Of a stretch of DNA of 35,394 nt, positions 333 through 34,174 are shown piece after piece; within the stretch, counting starts at the first letter, position 1; each line of letters begins with the position of its first letter. Below the pieces are notes generated by a model. It was given only the letters and a program-made list of their open reading frames with translations, was not told the DNA's origin and did no database searches. Source of the stretch: a virus (lineage: Duplodnaviria > Heunggongvirae > Uroviricota > Caudoviricetes); IMG/VR virus record IMGVR_UViG_2711768013_000020. One strand, 5' to 3'. The translations under genes were made by a program, and so were the position numbers.

Positions 333-3300
333 TTTTGGTCACAATCACCGTACAGTCGGTGATATTGCCTGCCCCCTGATTGCCTTTCTGGAAAATCTTA
401 AACTCCAGAGTGACGCTTCCCCTGCCACTCGGCATATCAATAACTGCACTGTAACTACCGGGAATGGCCCCTTTAGTTTCTCTGGATGCGATTAATACGC
501 CGTTTTTGCGAACTTCAAAACCATAACCCGTGTATCGCGTGCCTCCTGGGTTATTTCCGCTCCCCGGATCGTCATACGCTATACCGTTAAAAATAATGGG
601 CGGAATAATAATCTGGCGGTCAAAGTTATGATCATCGCTGATGGTGACTGTAACCGTACCGTTTGGTGTTTCCGTGTTACCCCACGTACCGACTTTTTTC
701 GGGAAGGCTTTTGATACAGCTTTAACGAAATCTCCTCTGACCTGGGTCGCCTCCAGCATGCCCTTAATCGTACAGTTCTGGTTAATCGTGACATTGTTGA
801 GCGTCCCTGAATTTGCATTCACATTACCGCTGATATCCGCATTTTTAGCGGTCAGCTTTCCGTCTGGTGTCAGGGAAAATGCCGGCGGATTTCCACCGCT
901 GGTAATGGTGGGAGCCGTCAGGCGTTTCAGGAACACGTCATTCATGAATATCTGGTTGCCCTGCGCCACAAACATCGGCGTTTCATTCCCGTTTGCCGGG
1001 TCAATAAACGCGATACGGTTAGCGGCAACCAGAAACTGGCTCAGTTTGCCTTCCTCCGTGTCCTCCATGCTGAGGCCAATACCCGCGACATAATGTTTGC
1101 CGTCTTTGGTCTGCTCAATTTTGACGCCCCACATGGCATTCCACTTATCGTTGGCGTCCTTCCACTCTTTCGAAAACTCCTCCAGTCTGCTGGCGTTATC
1201 CTCCGTCAGGTCGACTTTTTCCAGCAGCTCCTGGCCGAGATGGGATTCGGTTATCTGGCCTTTGAAAAAATCCAGGTAACCTTCCGCATCATCGCTCGCC
1301 CGACCGACAGCCTCCACGAATGCTGATTTGCCGACGGTGTTCACACTGCGGATATAAAAGTAATAATCATGGCCCGGCTTAATATTGATACTGGCGGCTA
1401 TCCAGTACAGCCCCGTGCCAAGGTAGCGGGCTGTGGTTTCAACCTGCCTGATATCCGCAATCCGTTTTTCCGAGAACCAGAACTCAAACTGTACCGTCGG
1501 GTCATAAACCGCAAGATGCGGCGTGGCGGTTATCTGAAAATAGCCCGGCGTCAGCTCAATCCGCGACGGCGCTGCCGGTGCGGCAATCCGGAACGATACC
1601 GACGCCGGATCGCCCTGCTGCCCCCACGCATTTACTGCCCGGACTGTCAGCCTGTAGTTCCCCAGAGCCAGTTGTGTGAAGCGGTAAGTGGTTTCCGTCG
1701 TCCGGGCCGTGCTGACCAGCCGCTCACGGCCGTCATCCGCTGCCACGGTCAGGCGAAGCAGGAAGCTCACGCCCTTCACCACCTTCGGCGTGTCCCAGCG
1801 GGCCAGCACCTGGTATTCCCCGCTGTCTGCGGTGACTTCTGCGGTCAGGTGCTGCACCGCTGGCGGCGTGACACCATTTACCGTGCCGCTCTGGTCGCCG
1901 TCAAAGTGCGCCCCGTTATCCACGATGGCCTCTTTTTCCGGTACATGCTGCACGGCAGTGATGGCATACGTGCCGTCGTCGTTCTCACGGATACTCACGC
2001 AGCGGAACAGGCGCTGGCGCAGCGTCGGCAGCTTCAGCCCCCATACGCTGTATTCAGCAACGCCGTCAGGAACACGGCTCACTTTCACCTTCACGCCGTC
2101 GGTGACGGACTGAACCTCCACGCTGACCGGACTCCCCTGCCCGTCAACCAGGCTTATCAGCGTGGTGCCGGAAGATGGCAGCGTGATTTCACGGTCGAGC
2201 GTCAGCGTCCGGGTCTGGCTGTTTACCGCCAGCACGCGCCCGCCGGTGCGGATACCGGCATAGTCATCATCGCAGATTTCAATGACATCGCCCGGTACAT
2301 GGCGAAGCCCTTCGGCACCCACGCTGAAGTCCACGGTCTGCGTTTCCAGCAGTTCTGTTTTAATCAGCCACAGCCCGGCGCGGTGTGCCTGCCCCCGGCT
2401 GGTACAGCCAAAAGCATCCATCTTCGTGACGTTACGACCGTAACGGGCAATGGCCTGCGTGTCCTCCACAAGCTCTGTCGCCGTCTCCCAGCCGTTATTC
2501 GGGTCAATCCAGTTCACCTCAACGGCATTATGGCGGTCCTTCAGGGCGCTGAAGCTGTAGCGGAACGGCGCGCCATCATCCGGCATCACCACATTACTGC
2601 GGTTATAGGTCCACACCTTATCTGATGGTCGGTCCTGCACGAACGTCAGCGTCTGCCCGTTCCATACCGGCATACAGCGCATCGCCGAGCAGAAATCACT
2701 GAGCACATCCCACGCCTTGCGCTGTGTGGTCAGGTACGCATTACAGGTGATGCGCGGCTCCGTGCCGCCAAAACCGTCCGGCACCGACTGATCGCAATGC
2801 TGGCCGATGACATACAGCGCCCATTTGTCCACATCCGCCGCACCAAGACGTTTCCCCATGCCGTAGCGCGGATGGGTCAGCATATCCCACAGACACCAGG
2901 CCATGTTGTTGCTGTATGCTGGCTTAAACGTTCCGTCCCAGATACCGCTGTATTGCCGCGTCTGCGGGTTATAGCTCGACGGCACCTGCAGAATGCGCCC
3001 GCGCAGATGATAATTACGGCTCACCTGCTGGCTGCCGAACTGCTCCGAATCCACCTGCACGCCGACCAGTGCCGTGTTCGGGTAGCACTGTTTCACATCG
3101 ATGATTTCGGTGTATGACGACCAGAGCGTTTTGTTCTGCAGCTGGTCTGTGGTGCTGTCTGGCGTCATCCTGCGCATCCGGATATTAAACGGGCGCGGCG
3201 GCAGGTTATCCACCACCACCGAGGCCAGATACTGCGAGGTGGTTTTGCCCTTAATGGTGATGTCTTTTTCCGTCACCCAGCCACCATTACGTTGTATCTG

Positions 3301-5071: not shown

Positions 5072-5736
5072 TTACTGCGAAAGTTTGTTAATGGAAAGGA
5101 AGCCGCCAAAGTTGCCGACGTTATTGCGAAACTTACAGCCGCTCAGGCATTTGCTGCATTTATCCTTCGTGATATCGGACGTCGGCTGATCATATTCATC
5201 CGCGACCGCCGGACCGTGATAACCGCACTCATCGCCGCGATAGGTCCAGGTGCAGGTGTTGGCCAGCATGATGCGCCCCGGAAAAACAGCGCCATCCGTT
5301 TCCGTCGGCGTGGACAGTACAAANNNNNNNNNNNNNNNNNNNNNNNNNNNNNNNNNNNNNNNNNNNNNNNNNNNNNNNNNNNNNNNNNNNNNNNNNNNNN
5401 NNNNNNNNNNNNNNNNNNNNNNNNNNNNNNNNNNNNNNNNNNNNNNNNNNNNNNNNNNNNNNNNNNNNNNNNNNNNNNNNNNNNNNNNNNNNNNNNNNNN
5501 NNNNNNNNNNNNNNNNNNNNNNNNNNNNNNNNNNNNNNNNNNNNNNNNNNNNNNNNNNNNNNNNNNNNNNNNNGTCGCCCCTGCCAGGTGACCGGCTCAC
5601 CTTTTTCGTTCTGCTCATTACAGAAAAAATAACGTTCTCCACCGACCTCTGTCAGATCGATTTCCCAGAGCACCACCTGGGCTGACTGAGTGAGGCGTGT
5701 CGTCTCATGATGTGTTTCCTGTGGAATATCCTGCAT
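5072..5736 (-). CDS. L: Minor tail protein L, interrupted by a 250-N assembly gap (frame across the gap unknown)
   Basis: N-terminal part MQDIPQETHHETTRLTQSAQVVLWEIDLTEVGGERYFFCNEQNEKGEPVTWQGR (5575-5736) and C-terminal part ...CTWTYRGDECGYHGPAVADEYDQPTSDITKDKCSKCLSGCKFRNNVGNFGGFLSINKLSQ (5072-5269) both lambda L-like. Confidence 0.8.
5324..5573. other. Assembly gap (250 N) inside gene L
   Basis: Run of N. Confidence 1.
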
Positions 5737-20415: not shown

Positions 20416-20550
20416 GGATATTTATCAGGATTTATCGGTTTCTGCCCACGGACAGGTTTATCTGTTCCGGTCAGTGACTTAAGGTTGTGATTCCGGAGGA
20501 GTCTTCAGAGAACCAGTAATTCTTCCTGGTAGCTTTCCTTTGTAGGTTAT

Positions 20551-20560
20551 NNNNNNNNNN
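20551..20560. other. Assembly gap (10 N) inside the holin gene
   Basis: Run of N. Confidence 1.
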
Positions 20561-20632
20561 AAACCAGTACCCGGCACTACCTGCTGAGGTGCCATAGGCG
20601 ACACCCGTTGTTAACTTATCCATGGATTTCAT
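20561..20632 (-). CDS. S: Pinholin (phage 21 S-type), N-terminal 24 codons only; remainder lost in or after the gap
   Basis: [24 protein letters not shown] with dual-start MKSM motif and RBS GAGGTGGGG; no holin-like C-terminus in any frame of 20416-20550. Confidence 0.65.
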
Positions 20633-20671
20633 AACCCCACCTCGCAGATGCGGGTGCTGTGTAATGGAAAT

Positions 20672-20693
20672 AAAAAGGCCACCTGACGTGGCC
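20672..20693 (-). terminator. Candidate terminator between the methyltransferase and the lysis genes
   Basis: Hairpin GGCCAC-gtcag-GTGGCC followed by TTTTT on the minus strand. Confidence 0.4.
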
Positions 20694-20699
20694 ACCAGA

Positions 20700-21752
20700 T
20701 TATTTCCCCACCAGCTCGTTTATCTCTTTCACTGTCTGATTAAACCGCTCTGACTCAAGCTCAACACCTAAGGCCCGACGCCCCAGCGCCATTGCTGCTT
20801 TTATTGTGGAACCGGATCCCATAAAAAAATCAGCAACCAGATCACCTGGTCGACTACTGGCATTGATTATTTGCCTGAGCATATCCGCCGGTTTCTCACA
20901 CGGATGTTTCCCCGGGTAGAACTGAACGGGTTTATGCATCCAGACATCGGTATAAGGCACGGAGACTGATACGGAGAAATAGCGCCGGAGAGATTTAAAC
21001 TCATCCAGCAATTCAGAATATTTACGATTCAGTGAATCATAAGATGCCACCAGCTGGTGGTGTGGTTGTTCCAGTTGTTGTTCCTGAAACTTCTCTGCCG
21101 CTATACGGGAAAACAGTGCCTGTAACTTCCGATAGTCAGCCTCATTCGGCAACTGCCACTGACTGGCACCAAACCAGTGGGAAACCATATTTTTCTTACC
21201 TGTGGCTTCGGCAATTTGTTTTGCCGTTATACCCAGTTCGGCACGAGCATCCCTGAAATACGATATCAGCGGTGCCATTATGTGCTGTTTGAGTTCCCTT
21301 TCTTTTGCCGCATAGCCGTCACTTTTGCCGCGATATGGCCCCTGGTAATGTTCAGCAAACAGAACGCGCTCTGTGGCAGGAAAATATGCGCGCAGACTTT
21401 CTTTATTACACCCATTCCAACGTCCGGACGGCTTCGCCCAGATGATATGGTTAAGCACGTTGAAACGTTCACGCATCATGATCTCAATATCAGATGCCAG
21501 GCGATGCCCACAGAACAGGTAAAGGCTTCCGGCAGGTTTCAACACCCGCCAGAACTGGGCCAGACAGTGGTCCAGCCACTTAAGGTAATCTTCGTCCCCT
21601 TTCCACTGATTGTCCCAACCGTTGGGTTTCACCTTGAAGTAAGGCGGATCGGTAACAATCAGGTCAATGGAATCATCAGGCAGGGACTGAATAAAATGCA
21701 GGCAATCAGCGTTGATTAAATCAACACTGTTTATTTTTACAGTATTTTTCAT
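20700..21752 (-). CDS. DNA methyltransferase, beta-class (N6-adenine or N4-cytosine), with no adjacent restriction endonuclease
   Basis: 350 aa; DPPY catalytic motif near the N-terminus (IVTDPPYF) and SAM-binding FFMGSGST near the C-terminus. Confidence 0.85.
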
Positions 21753-21902: not shown

Positions 21903-22130
21903 TTACTGGCAGCGTCTGAATTTATTCCCGTACCCGCCGTTATCCTTCGCCAGACCCGCCAGAACTAACTGAGTCAGTATTAACTGGCACCGGGCTTCGC
22001 TTACTCCGGTAGTTCTCGTCATCATGCGTGGCGTTACCCACTTGTCAGCAGGTAAGAAATGAAGGACTGCGGCGGCGGTTTCTGTCATATCTTGCTGTTT
22101 TAGCATGTCTTTTTCCCTTCTGGTTAACAT
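21903..22130 (-). CDS. Hypothetical small protein (75 aa)
   Basis: ORF only; no recognised family. Confidence 0.35.
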   Translation of the reverse strand: MLTRREKDMLKQQDMTETAAAVLHFLPADKWVTPRMMTRTTGVSEARCQLILTQLVLAGLAKDNGGYGNKFRRCQ

Positions 22131-22226
22131 GACATACCAATAACTCTTGTCTAAAAAGCCAGCAAGATAAAAAGTCAGTATTCACGACCACCAGCGTGTT
22201 TACTGTACTGCACCAAGTTTACGGGT

Positions 22227-22251
22227 ACAAAAAACCCGCTCAGTGGCGGGT
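22227..22251 (-). terminator. Intrinsic terminator downstream of the lipoprotein gene (copy 1 of a repeated element)
   Basis: ACCCGC-n6-GCGGGT hairpin followed by TTTTTT on the minus strand. Confidence 0.55.
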
Positions 22252-22329
22252 TGCTATCACAGCTATATATTTACTTATTATGCCGTTACTAACATTTATC
22301 TTCGACATATAATCGAAAACAAGGTTTGC

Positions 22330-22755
22330 TTAAAACTCTGCTTTCATTTTATCCGGGAATTTTTTATTTGCAGCATAATAACTACCAAGTACATAAGCGT
22401 TCATTTGCTGCTCTACATCAACCCGACATGCCGCACTAGAACAAGCTCCACTGATAAGCCCAAAAGAACTCCCTTTAGCAGAGAGATCAGCTTTGATTTC
22501 CTCTACAGTGTTTTTCCCCATAGCAACTACACACCCTGTCACAATATATCTAGCTTTCACATCATCCATGCTAAGGATAGTAGTTTTCGCAATTTTGCTG
22601 TATCCATCATTTTTATAAACATCCATGGCAAACGCACGGCAATCTGTATAATACGGACTTGCTTTAACTTGCGAATACTCAGGTAATTTCATACCTGCAC
22701 AACCAACTAAACAAAAACCTATCGCTGCTATTAATACCTTTTTCATTACAGTCAT
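22330..22755 (-). CDS. Lipoprotein of unknown function (moron downstream of Q)
   Basis: MKKVLIAAIGFCLVGCAG signal peptide with lipobox; AT-rich coding sequence; flanked by terminators. Confidence 0.7.
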   Translation of the reverse strand: MTVMKKVLIAAIGFCLVGCAGMKLPEYSQVKASPYYTDCRAFAMDVYKNDGYSKIAKTTILSMDDVKARYIVTGCVVAMGKNTVEEIKADLSAKGSSFGLISGACSSAACRVDVEQQMNAYVLGSYYAANKKFPDKMKAEF

Positions 22756-22902
22756 AACCTAGAAGCATCATTGAAACTAATTTATTAAATAACCATCGAG
22801 TTTCTGGAATACAGACGTTAACCATCTCTCCAAAATCTAAAAGATAATAAGAAAAAATGTTTAACGCACCAATCCATTTCATAGTTTCATGAGACATCAG
22901 GC

Positions 22903-22931
22903 ACAAAAAACCCGCTCAGCGGCGGGTTTTT
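22903..22931 (-). terminator. Intrinsic terminator downstream of Q (tR'-like; copy 2 of the repeated element)
   Basis: AAAAAACCCGCTCAGCGGCGGGTTTTT: same stem as 22227-22251 with U-runs on both strands. Confidence 0.55.
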
Positions 22932-22974
22932 GACATTTACCAACGGTAGACATACAAGGCCCATCGTTGAGAAA

Positions 22975-23003
22975 ATCTTATCCATATTTTTTGAAAAATG
23001 CAA
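22975..23003 (-). promoter_or_regulatory. Candidate late promoter (PR'-like) between Q and the tR'-like terminator
   Basis: Minus strand TTGCAT - 17 nt - TAAGAT. Confidence 0.3.
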
Positions 23004-23034: not shown

Positions 23035-23787
23035 CTATCTTGTCACTTTTCTCAATTGCGATTCAGCATACGCTTCTTCCTGCCAGCACTTTGTAACCAG
23101 TTTATTAATAACGTCTGCATATCCTTTGTACCACTGATAATCCGTCAGGTCCGGTACCAGTTTCTGGACATGATGCCGCGCCAGTGTGGTTGGTAAACGG
23201 CTAAACCGGTTGCCATTGCAACGCCCACAAATCTTATAAACAGGCACACCATGAAGCCGGGTTCTTTTTTCATCCAGGACAATACCTTTACCCTTACACC
23301 CTCTGCACGCTGTGCTGACTTCTCCCTTACCATGGCAATGCTGACATAGTTCCTTCACCCACTCTTCCTTGATAACAGATTCCCCGCTTCTGGAGTGTTT
23401 CACCACTTCGCGCAATACATTATGAAATCCAGTACCAGCACAATGCTCACAGCGAGCCTTACTTGCCGCAGACCTGGAATAATCAGCAAAGGCAAAATTC
23501 ACAAGGTAAGGGATGATCTGTAACCGGGTTTCTTCACTCAATTTGTTCAATGTCGGGTTATCCAGTGCCATCGCGTAATTGAGCAGACCTTCAATCGCAA
23601 ATTGAGGATCCTGAACACCAACTTTTGCCAGGAATAAGGCAAACCCAAGCGGTGCTTTCGACTGCACCATCCCCTGCGCAGCCATCACATCCGTAATCGT
23701 TAAACCACCTGAGCCTGTCGCCGGTGCGTCATCGCTCAATTTTGGAGATTTTGGGGAGTAATATTTTGGTAAGGCTTCAAGGTTCAT
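23035..23787 (-). CDS. Q: Late-gene antiterminator Q
   Basis: From ATG 23787 MNLEALPKYYSPKSPKLSDD...; zinc-binding CxxC pairs (CEHCAGTG, CGRCNG), C-terminal ...LRKVTR; lambda Q-like. Confidence 0.85.
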   Translation of the reverse strand: MNLEALPKYYSPKSPKLSDDAPATGSGGLTITDVMAAQGMVQSKAPLGFALFLAKVGVQDPQFAIEGLLNYAMALDNPTLNKLSEETRLQIIPYLVNFAFADYSRSAASKARCEHCAGTGFHNVLREVVKHSRSGESVIKEEWVKELCQHCHGKGEVSTACRGCKGKGIVLDEKRTRLHGVPVYKICGRCNGNRFSRLPTTLARHHVQKLVPDLTDYQWYKGYADVINKLVTKCWQEEAYAESQLRKVTR

Positions 23788-23800
23788 GCTCGTTCTCCAC

Positions 23801-24796
23801 TTACGCCAATACGCCAATTGCCAGCGCACGATCGATAAAACGAAATATCAGCTCCAGCTGGGAGCCATACTTCTCTTCAAATGCCACGGTATCCGCATGC
23901 AGCTCGTCGTGATGCTTTCTGCACAAAGGCAACACAAAGAGGTCATGCGCTTTTGTACCCATTCCACCCTGACCGTGGCCTATCAGGTGGTGGGGATCAT
24001 CAGCAGGCTTTCCACAACATGCACACGGCTGTGTCTTAACCCAGCGCGTGTACTTTTCATTAACCCAGCGGCGGCGTTTTGGGCGTAACATAAAAGACTC
24101 CGGCGACTCCGGATCCACTTTCAGCGCCAGCACCTTTTTTGCCTTATCCTGGATGATGCTGGTGGCAGGAACCGAAGGCACAAGGTCACTTTCCCGGGTG
24201 ACAGACGGCACAACAGGCTTTGGTAATCTCAGTGCCTTACGGGCTGCACTTTCCGGTAAGGCATCCGCCAGGTCATTACGAATCAGCCACCAGCACAGTT
24301 CCGGCATTGTCACAACGTGACTATCATCAAAACCGAGATCCCGACGCACAACAGACAACACCCAGCGGGCACAGTTATCCGTTGCCATTGATTCCAGCCG
24401 TTCCGTGAACTGATCGCGCAGCTGGTTATCGCAGTGCCAGCACAGACGGATTGCGCCCGGAGCGTGTCGCATTGTGGTCATGTTCTCGCTGTGCCAGTCG
24501 GAATGAGGCCACTGGCAGCCTTTTTCACGAAGTAACCAGCTTTCAAGACATTCCACGCCACCAGCACGACGGATCACTGCCTCATTGCGGAACACGGCCC
24601 GAACGGCAGGATCATCCGCCAGCGGTTGTGATGCCGCCGGAACGGCACCACTGGCGAAAGATGAATAACGTTCCGGCTCAGGCTCCAGCAGAACACGCCC
24701 CTGCATAAACAGGGGCATCAGCTCTGAACCTGGCCTGAACAATACGATCCCCATACGCGGGGCAATTTCAGGGGTCAGTAGTGCTCTCACGGTCAC
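23801..24796 (-). CDS. nin-region protein with C-terminal HNH-like zinc-finger motif (DUF968-like)
   Basis: 331 aa; C-terminal CACCGKPADDPHHLIGHG...CRKHHDELH. Confidence 0.5.
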   Translation of the reverse strand: MTVRALLTPEIAPRMGIVLFRPGSELMPLFMQGRVLLEPEPERYSSFASGAVPAASQPLADDPAVRAVFRNEAVIRRAGGVECLESWLLREKGCQWPHSDWHSENMTTMRHAPGAIRLCWHCDNQLRDQFTERLESMATDNCARWVLSVVRRDLGFDDSHVVTMPELCWWLIRNDLADALPESAARKALRLPKPVVPSVTRESDLVPSVPATSIIQDKAKKVLALKVDPESPESFMLRPKRRRWVNEKYTRWVKTQPCACCGKPADDPHHLIGHGQGGMGTKAHDLFVLPLCRKHHDELHADTVAFEEKYGSQLELIFRFIDRALAIGVLA

Positions 24797-25626: not shown

Positions 25627-26016
25627 TCAGGCGGCTGCACCCGCCGGTTTCTCATACTTACTGATAGTGATCTCGACCTTCCCTTTCTGGATAACCGGTC
25701 CCCACTCCACCAGCATTCTTTTCACCTGGCTGTCGTCTTCCCACACCCCCGCGTGGGTCAGGGCGTCAAACAGCGCCTTGTTATAGTTGTCCAGATCGCG
25801 GATCCGGTTATCCGGAGGAAACAACACGATCTCCACTGAAGCAGGTGCCGACGTTGGTTTTGGCAGACGACGTAACTGCTCAACTATTGCTGCGCACGCC
25901 GCGCTCTGAAATTTTCGCCCCGCCGCGCTTATCAGGCTCTTACCAGCAAATGCCCCTTTGTTGGGGTGTCGCCAGTACGTGTTCACGCTGGGCGGGAAAG
26001 GCAGGATCAGCTTCAT
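25627..26016 (-). CDS. rusA: Holliday junction resolvase RusA
   Basis: 129 aa; MKLILPFPPSVNTYWRH...RDLDNYNKALFDALTHAGVWEDDSQV matches RusA motifs. Confidence 0.85.
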   Translation of the reverse strand: MKLILPFPPSVNTYWRHPNKGAFAGKSLISAAGRKFQSAACAAIVEQLRRLPKPTSAPASVEIVLFPPDNRIRDLDNYNKALFDALTHAGVWEDDSQVKRMLVEWGPVIQKGKVEITISKYEKPAGAAA

Positions 26017-34145: not shown

Positions 34146-34174
34146 AGAAAAAACCCGCCTAAAGGCGGGTTTTC
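34144..34174. terminator. Convergent terminator shared by the plus-strand early-left genes and the minus-strand Panacea operon
   Basis: AAAAACCCGCC-taaa-GGCGGGTTTT: 7-bp GC stem with A/T runs on both sides. Confidence 0.65.

Follow-up and report, generated by a model that had tools for sequence, protein, structure and literature searches.

Morons are extra genes in phage genomes that are absent from close relatives, differ from their surroundings in base composition, bring a promoter and a terminator of their own and are expressed from the repressed prophage (PMC3594210). In lambdoid phages, the term, which stems from Juhala and Hendrix, applies to HK97 gp15, to bor and lom of lambda and to the stx operons (PMC3594210). 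Late transcription in this group starts from the promoter PR', and short PR' transcripts have been documented for lambda, 21, 82, P22 and the Shiga toxin (Stx) phages (PMC7547250). Here, we analyze a stretch of 35,394 nucleotides (nt) from a lambda-like prophage of Escherichia coli (IMG/VR record IMGVR_UViG_2711768013_000020; this whole stretch is referred to as the window), in which a gene for a small lipoprotein lies downstream of the antiterminator gene Q and is bracketed by two hairpins, termed U (upstream) and D (downstream) below.

A lipoprotein gene between two tR'-type hairpins is an ordinary moron layout in an E. coli lambda-like prophage. We hold it likely, at a probability of roughly 0.7, that leader, lipoprotein gene and terminator form a moron-type cassette directly past the terminator tR' of a lambda-family late unit, and that the cassette is expressed, gained and lost by the mechanism proposed below. 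The locus is an uncharacterized member of a well-known kind of element, its layout is already visible in published phage annotations, and the current understanding of lambdoid phages is unchanged by it.

The late promoter, its terminator and the cassette

The two hairpins are part of a direct repeat of 29 nt at 22224-22252 and 22900-22928, the copies of which start 676 nt apart and align with 27 of 29 positions identical; the core pattern of the repeat matches the window exactly twice, compared to 0.00 matches expected from 100 shuffles. Read on the minus strand, both copies have the form AACCCGCC(A/G)CTGAGCGGG followed by six T residues, and folding yields a G+C-rich stem of 7-10 base pairs (bp) with about -13 to -14 kcal/mol. 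U, at 22900-22931 (repeat copy 22900-22928), reads AAAAACCCGCCGCTGAGCGGGTTTTTT and then GTGCC, and D, at 22224-22252, reads AACCCGCCACTGAGCGGGTTTTTT and then GTACC. The original prediction, made from the window only, that these are near-identical intrinsic terminators of the minus strand thus extends to a repeat that includes loop and flank. A terminator scan of the window flagged D (-13.3 kcal/mol) and not U, which we regard as a scanner artefact and no real difference, because the A-run in U pairs with the T-run and consumes the tail.

Upstream of U lies the Q gene (23035-23787, minus strand; the mechanical open reading frame, ORF, reaches back to a GTG at 23829), which is annotated in RefSeq as a 753-nt gene, ydfT or antitermination protein. 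Its product of 250 amino acids (aa) belongs to the lambda family of Q antiterminators (PF03589 Antiterm, E 6.9e-54) and is 34% identical to lambda Q (BLASTP, E 1e-41), relative to which it has an insertion of 48 aa with a DnaJ-type CXXCXGXG zinc finger and extra CXXC motifs matching PF00684. PR' was located at 22963-23003 on the minus strand, with a -35 hexamer TTGCAT (23003-22998), a 17-nt spacer and a -10 hexamer TAAGAT (22980-22975). The arrangement TTGCAT-17 nt-TAAGAT-TTTCTC-AACGATGGG aligns column-for-column with TTGACT-17 nt-TAAATT-TGACTC-AACGATGGG of lambda, with CAACGATGGG shared without change where lambda has its transcription start and pause element. By homology, +1 is placed at 22968 and the sigma-70 pause-inducing element AACGAT at 22968-22963. 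In lambda, AACGAT induces the sigma-70-dependent pause that is required for the loading of Q.

U is the first terminator past PR' and stands 111 nt after the Q stop codon, a distance found again in 37 IMG/VR contigs. To judge from sequence and position, U is the tR' of a lambda-type late unit, which only Q-modified polymerase would be predicted to read through. A constitutive short PR'-tR' RNA of about 64 nt is predicted at 22905-22968 (minus strand), from the putative +1 to the end of the T-run at 22905; it folds into the terminator hairpin and a 5' hairpin (-22.9 kcal/mol, z -2.27).

Between U and D, the G+C content drops to 35.7%, compared to 47-48% in the Q and methylase genes and 51% in the whole window, a deviation of the kind by which morons are recognized. 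The cassette is also absent from close relatives at the same position. A megablast search against phage genomes gave full-length matches to mEp460, to Ayreon, for which both terminators already figure in the GenBank record, and to fifteen Stx2c-converting phages, while matches to SfV and vB_EcoM-720R4 (hereafter 720R4) skip the cassette; others end exactly at one hairpin, namely at D in phage cdtI and its relatives and at U in the Stx1 phage Lys8385Vzw. An alignment of four sequences shows a single hairpin in SfV and 720R4, between the same Q-PR' and the same orf75-methylase segments, and the gap corresponds to the cassette plus one hairpin. Among 5426 complete E. coli genomes, 215 (~4%) contain the cassette in 220 copies, each matched over at least 80% of the cassette length; all copies are chromosomal, none is on a plasmid, and they are annotated as 'hypothetical protein'. 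The empty junction, searched for with a 224-nt query over at least 80% of its length, is present in 257 complete E. coli genomes. About 1,500 further genomes match one half of this query only, with the partial matches listed ending at the borders of the hairpin (query positions 1-124 and 92-224). Hence the lipoprotein gene is, as had been proposed, a variable insert and no core lambdoid gene, and relatives with a single tR' hairpin do exist.

The empty sites are of more than one kind. In SfV (locus L002, 3000-3040) and six IMG/VR contigs (L045, L059, L065, L097, L123, and L124), the hairpin is followed by GTGCCTTGATGT and then by the orf75 flank. This sequence is similar to the initial 12 nt of the cassette leader (GTGCCTGATGT) and may be a deletion scar or a chance match.

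It is conceivable, though in our judgment doubtful, that the cassette is ancestral at this site and that all empty phages arose by secondary deletion between the direct repeats, with no insertion at tR' at all. A crossover between U and D would be expected to leave precisely the empty sites of the 720R4 type, and the ~12 nt retained in the SfV type could be the remainder of a leader, but this match is short and partly coincides with a flank motif common to many hairpin copies. Moreover, the AT-rich composition of the cassette and its presence in unrelated elements point to acquisition, and the combination of hairpin and orf75 flank is found behind other Q modules, too, none of which ever shows the cassette.

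Since Stx phages carry their toxin genes between Q and the lysis genes, the cassette had been described as occupying the stx position. It does lie in this interval, but it is no alternative to stx, as Stx2c and Stx2k phages carry both. The order in the Stx2c phage EH0430 is Q, U, lipoprotein gene (100% aa identity), D, orf75, methylase, stx2A and stx2B (L130, 4392-9131); in phiSTEC1575-Stx2k, it is Q, U, lipoprotein gene, D, an orf75-like gene, a helix-turn-helix gene, three tRNAs, stx2A and stx2B (L131, 2376-6757). Here the cassette is located upstream of stx2 on what is predicted to be the same PR' transcript, and the two should be co-transcribed after induction. A Stx1 phage with the same Q and PR' has the same stem with another loop, and stx1AB follows directly past tR'.

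The lipoprotein, its relatives and its expression

The lipoprotein gene (22330-22746, minus strand) encodes 138 aa from an MKK start (ATG at 22746). The original prediction had given an AT-rich gene of 141 aa with an LVGC lipobox, corresponding to the ORF at 22330-22755; gene, lipobox and composition stand, but a comparison of homologues favors the start at 22746 over 22755. The signal peptide has the organization typical of lipoproteins, MKK-VLIAAIGFC-LVGC, with a charged n-region, a hydrophobic core and the lipobox. The mature protein has 123 aa, a pI of 8.6 and Ala at position +2 after Cys+1. The lipobox Cys is invariant in eight homologues, and so are Cys36, Cys72, Cys102 and Cys107 across homologues of 55-77% identity. 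Ratios of nonsynonymous to synonymous polymorphism (pN/pS) of 0.21 among alleles of E. coli and of 0.18 relative to the Salmonella copy indicate that this is a real gene under purifying selection. AlphaFold2 models a helical bundle (pLDDT 84, pTM 0.79) with disorder in the signal peptide only. Lipoproteins lacking Asp at +2 are sorted to the outer membrane; Ala, Ser or Val is found at this position in the family, and the product is predicted to be an outer-membrane lipoprotein.

The family is tiny. Sequence searches yielded 11 clusters among 5.8 billion proteins and eight among 1.84 billion representatives, all enterobacterial and, in both sets, without distant annotated relatives; among 185,579 species representatives, homologues were found in four Serratia species. 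The lipoprotein matches phrog_4748 and, weakly, phrog_8068, both of unknown function. Profile searches gave no Pfam or NCBIfam family, no PADLOC defence family matched at E-values up to 0.1, and fold and sequence searches of PDB and BFVD returned nothing informative; the only PDB profile hits, to uL14m (best E 0.04), were judged spurious. We found no paper naming WP_000217632, and nothing on the gene in the literature on mEp460, morons or Stx2k phages. On the plus strand, a promoter-like site with 10/12 consensus positions (ATGGCA-16-TATAAT, 22625-22652) lies antisense within the gene and may be spurious. Promoter-like sites are common in AT-rich DNA.

Homologues occur in a variety of contexts. 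The Salmonella copy, which is 77% identical, is situated behind an unrelated Q family and directly ahead of lysis genes; it is preceded by the same hairpin and followed by a related one whose loop differs. Other homologues are found in the early region of Rac-like prophages adjoining vapBC, in SSU5-like phage-plasmids of Klebsiella and Buttiauxella and, in one case, within a mobile-element setting that includes a group II intron reverse transcriptase. The chromosomal homologues (that of L009 and those of Serratia; loci L009 and L244-L247) have the gene and ~110 nt upstream of it in common and differ in their flanks, and they too behave as a single-gene islet. The hairpin bracket was not found around the homologues in these non-late contexts (Rac-like, phage-plasmid, mobile-element and chromosomal). 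An accessory gene that carries its own expression signals would be expected to roam as a single gene in this way, and this behavior argues against a role tied to the tail or lysis system of one phage.

We propose the following mode of action for the cassette. In the lysogen, PR' would fire constitutively and its transcripts would end at U, giving a short RNA similar to 6S or StxS. If the candidate promoter TTGGTG-17-TATTAT is active, the lipoprotein would be made from the repressed prophage, and D would halt cassette transcripts of polymerase not modified by Q ahead of orf75, the methylase, stx2 (in Stx phages) and the lysis genes. Upon induction, Q-modified RNA polymerase would read through U, the cassette and D, which would make the lipoprotein the first late protein. 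The precursor would be exported by Sec, lipidated and cleaved before the lipobox Cys (LVG/C); with Ala at +2, the Lol system would sort it to the inner leaflet of the outer membrane, and it may form two periplasmic disulfides.

The candidate promoter is situated at 22844-22872 on the minus strand (TTGGTG at 22872-22867, a 17-nt spacer and TATTAT at 22849-22844) and matches the consensus at 8 of 12 positions. At the same position, the Salmonella cassette has TTGGTA-18-TATCAT, which scores 9/12 and was flagged by the promoter scanner, and the E. coli and Salmonella leaders are ~63% identical (hand count from the alignment). Together, these observations are only suggestive of an independent cassette promoter.

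Several points weigh against the cassette model as a whole. The scan of the window, which did not flag the candidate, revealed no minus-strand promoter of at least 9/12 in the leader, and the candidate has no clear counterpart upstream of more distant homologues. The expression part of the model is a prediction from the sequence. Furthermore, the stem of U and D has a generic form, so that their similarity could be partly convergent, and the loop of the hairpin downstream of the Salmonella cassette differs, wherefore the original cassette terminator was probably no copy of tR'.

The first of these points would suit a late-only passenger, a gene without promoter of its own that is expressed by Q-dependent read-through, with D as a recombination by-product lacking any insulating role. 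The -35 hexamer of the candidate matches the consensus at only three of six positions, alignments with the upstream regions of distant homologues do not extend over it, and D is native to the orf75 module with or without the cassette. We nevertheless consider such a passenger unlikely: both hexamers are kept at the same position in Salmonella despite the diverged leader, homologues standing alone in non-late contexts must have a promoter of their own, and the Salmonella cassette has its own terminator, too.

Around the gene, the cassette holds little else that appears functional. The leader fold is unremarkable (z -1.6), and the small ORFs annotated in it as 'hypothetical protein' in Ayreon (L001, 3594-3707) and the Stx2k phage (L131, 5720-5913) were treated as non-genes because the Salmonella leader does not conserve them. 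The AT-rich 3' untranslated region (UTR; 22253-22329, minus strand) has an additional 11-bp stem-loop at ~22296-22322, just upstream of D, and the segment 22222-22335 folds with -30.9 kcal/mol (z -4.05), the terminator included. The Salmonella cassette lacks this stem-loop region and has its terminator ~10 nt past the stop codon; therefore, a small RNA derived from the 3' UTR finds no support. Rfam searches at E-values up to 1 gave only sub-threshold matches to Trp and Leu leaders, which reflect the terminator.

As to the activity of the lipoprotein, we suppose with low confidence that it is an envelope-acting accessory that aids the lysogen by phage exclusion or envelope protection. The late-expressed surface or exclusion factor of the original prediction is thereby kept as a candidate, on which the homology and fold searches shed no light. 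A role in the phage's own lytic cycle appears less probable, given that related phages do without the gene and that it is also found in mobile elements of very different kinds.

The hairpin as a joint between modules

The stem AACCCGC-N6-GCGGGT6 is a very common form of terminator in enterophages. A stem scan of IMG/VR found it in at least 120 contigs, 13 of which represent loci with the exact hairpin (loop C(A/G)CTGA), while the other 107 have 73 distinct loops. Similarity in the stem on its own therefore says little, and the kinship of U and D rests on the loop and the GT(A/G)CC 3' flank that they have in common and on the comparison with empty sites. A third hairpin of the same stem family with another loop (AAAAAACCCGCCTAAAGGCGGGTTTT) is present at 34148-34173 of the window. 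Flanked by A- and T-runs on either side, it resembles a bidirectional terminator.

The exact 23-mer hairpin was found in at least 120 IMG/VR contigs. Among the matches listed, the PR' leader stands on the left in three classes, with orf75 on the right in 17 contigs, an SfV-type variant of the orf75 flank in six and the cassette leader in 11; the 3' end of the cassette on the left is combined with orf75 in 14 contigs, and a 'group 2' module, consisting of a PF06530 Q and a 214-aa ORF, with orf75 in 15. The remaining 58 contigs listed have other contexts on both sides and comprise 48 distinct flank pairs. The hairpin is the first terminator not only behind lambda-family Qs that are 40% and 67% identical to that of the window, but also behind the unrelated DUF1133/PF06530 Q family, at 68-111 nt past the Q stop codon in these settings (L006, 4198-4850; L050, L066, and L080; L035, L093, L103, and L127). 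In phages whose upstream modules differ, such as those of the cdtI type and 'group 2', it again stands ahead of orf75.

Haplotypes were compared in a slightly larger set of loci, which includes the window and fetched phage records and for which some counts are higher. The 3' flank of the U copy is always GTGCC, and its loop has A or G; in the D copy, the loop has A, and the flank is GTACC in 17 of 18 cases and GTGCC in one. Empty sites are all D-type in 17 cases, all U-type in one and SfV-type in seven, and both haplotypes of the PR' leader were seen in the occupied as well as in the empty state. This indicates crossovers at differing positions within the 29-nt repeat on more than one occasion, that is, a recurrent homologous exchange at the hairpin; such varied positions fit homologous exchange and do not fit site-specific or transpositional insertion. 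Gain and loss of the cassette would accordingly proceed by homologous recombination between hairpin copies of 23-29 nt, a length that should be enough for recombinases of the Red/RecT type. The earlier proposal that the gene was inserted by recombination at tR' stands as far as a variable insert and exchange at the hairpin are concerned. A duplication of tR', however, describes the event less accurately than an exchange at a shared hairpin joint, because the orf75 module natively has D as its left end behind other Qs, too.

That U and D are independent terminators that converged on the same form, being neither copies nor recombination partners, is very improbable and largely refuted. The abundance of the stem with at least 73 loops and the presence of the exact 23-mer between at least 48 unrelated pairs of flanks would allow for convergence, but it accounts neither for a loop identical at five of six positions and the matching GT(A/G)CC flank, nor for an indel relative to 720R4 that ends within the hairpin, nor for the hybrid haplotypes, among them an empty site whose loop and flank are both U-type and a D copy carrying a U-type flank. 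A small transposable element, derived from an insertion sequence or resembling a miniature inverted-repeat element, with the 29-nt repeat as target-site duplication, is scarcely credible despite the AT-rich insert between direct repeats and a 15-nt inverted repeat (87% complementary; 22267-22281 and 22844-22858) near the cassette ends, since 29 nt far exceed known target duplications, the cassette has no transposase ORF, the inverted repeat is of low complexity, AT-rich and set back from the ends by 14 and 41 nt, crossovers fall at varying positions of the repeat, and the repeated sequence is a functional-type terminator already present at empty sites.

The exact hairpin was also considered as a special mobile element and rejected, its loop being merely one of many on the same stem; because the stem is generic, the wide spread of the 23-mer is no evidence for such an element. 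Likewise rejected was an attC-like site of an integron, as there is no integrase, the crossover points vary and the stem is that of a generic terminator.

Further observations concern the surroundings of the hairpin in other phages. Many exact copies (among the IMG/VR loci L010-L129) share a loose 3' flank n-T-(A/G)-CCTG-(A/G)-A past the T-run, often with a ribosome-binding site and a start codon within ~20 nt. Other cargo behind the same tR' hairpin and ahead of lysis genes (L026, L062, and L093) consists of proteins of 281 aa (unknown), 247 aa and 133 aa; the 247-aa protein is presumably an AraC-type regulator, by its look. The hairpin that precedes orf75 in phage cdtI is a degenerate one (CCCGCCGTCGAGC-GG; L004, ~3030-3052), with the 3' arm one base short, and two opposite-strand genes, one of them encoding a DUF6731 protein, lie between this hairpin and the different Q of this phage.

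In the window, the gene order on the minus strand is rusA (25627-26016), genes for a KilA-N and a DUF968 protein, Q, hairpin, the 141-aa ORF, hairpin, a 75-aa ORF, methyltransferase, holin, lysozyme and Rz. The first gene past the cassette, orf75 (21903-22130), encodes a small winged-helix-like protein (phrog_331) that is labelled TrmB family in the annotation of one phage; D thus serves both as terminator of the cassette and as constant left end of the orf75-methylase module. The DNA N6/N4 methyltransferase gene (20700-21752; PF01555, E 2.2e-42) is followed by the lysis genes, beginning with the holin (20471-20695). The window contains N runs (masked or unknown bases) at 312-332, 5324-5573 and 20551-20560, the last of which lies inside the holin ORF and gives X residues in its translation.

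Comparison with known systems

The locus offers a clear natural example of how a moron can be wired into an operon controlled by antitermination without triggering lysis, and of a terminator of 23-29 nt as a homology patch for the gain, loss and exchange of cargo behind Q. In practical terms, a conserved uncharacterized lipoprotein gene lies between PR' and stx2, which studies on late transcription and toxin production in Stx2c and Stx2k phages must read through. A far-reaching interpretation would see here a new family of envelope-acting accessories, made in lysogens and as first late protein, co-transcribed with Shiga toxin in Stx2c and Stx2k phages and altering the outer membrane through exclusion or through envelope or vesicle changes at toxin release, with the tR' hairpin as a population-wide joint that swaps cargo behind different Qs; we regard this combination as improbable.

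The hairpin resembles the boundary or 'linker' sequences of lambdoid phages in being a short conserved sequence at the edge of a transcription unit where mosaic homology starts or stops. The linker idea reportedly goes back to the modular evolution of Susskind and Botstein, and boundary sequences are said to feature in comparisons of the HK620 type. What distinguishes the present linker is that it is itself a functional-type terminator hairpin of 23-29 nt and the first terminator behind at least two unrelated Q families.

Bor of lambda, Cor of phi80, HK022 and N15, and Llp of T5 are, like the protein described here, small lipoproteins of temperate phages encoded outside the structural genes, and like them it is a plausible candidate for lysogenic conversion or exclusion. 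It shows no homology to them, however, its matches being PHROGs of unknown function with no Pfam family. It further differs in its predicted helical bundle, in its linkage to the Q region instead of a tail or receptor module, and in its additional occurrence in phage-plasmids and chromosomes.

With the PR'-6S RNA-tR' unit of lambda and with StxS (PMC7547250), the late unit has in common the lambda-family Q, the hexamer spacing, the AACGAT element and an intrinsic terminator close downstream. The predicted RNA is much shorter, with ~64 nt compared to 194 nt for lambda 6S and 258 nt for StxS (PMC7547250), and Q, unlike that of lambda, carries the zinc-finger insertion.

Finally, the cassette is similar to known morons (PMC3594210) in being an extra gene placed between essential elements of the late operon, in the same interval between Q and the lysis genes that stx occupies, and, at the sequence level, in having its own terminator, D, as the Salmonella cassette also ends in one. 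It differs from them in that its own promoter is a candidate only, and in that its terminator shares its sequence with the tR' of the phage, hence the 29-nt repeat that flanks it.

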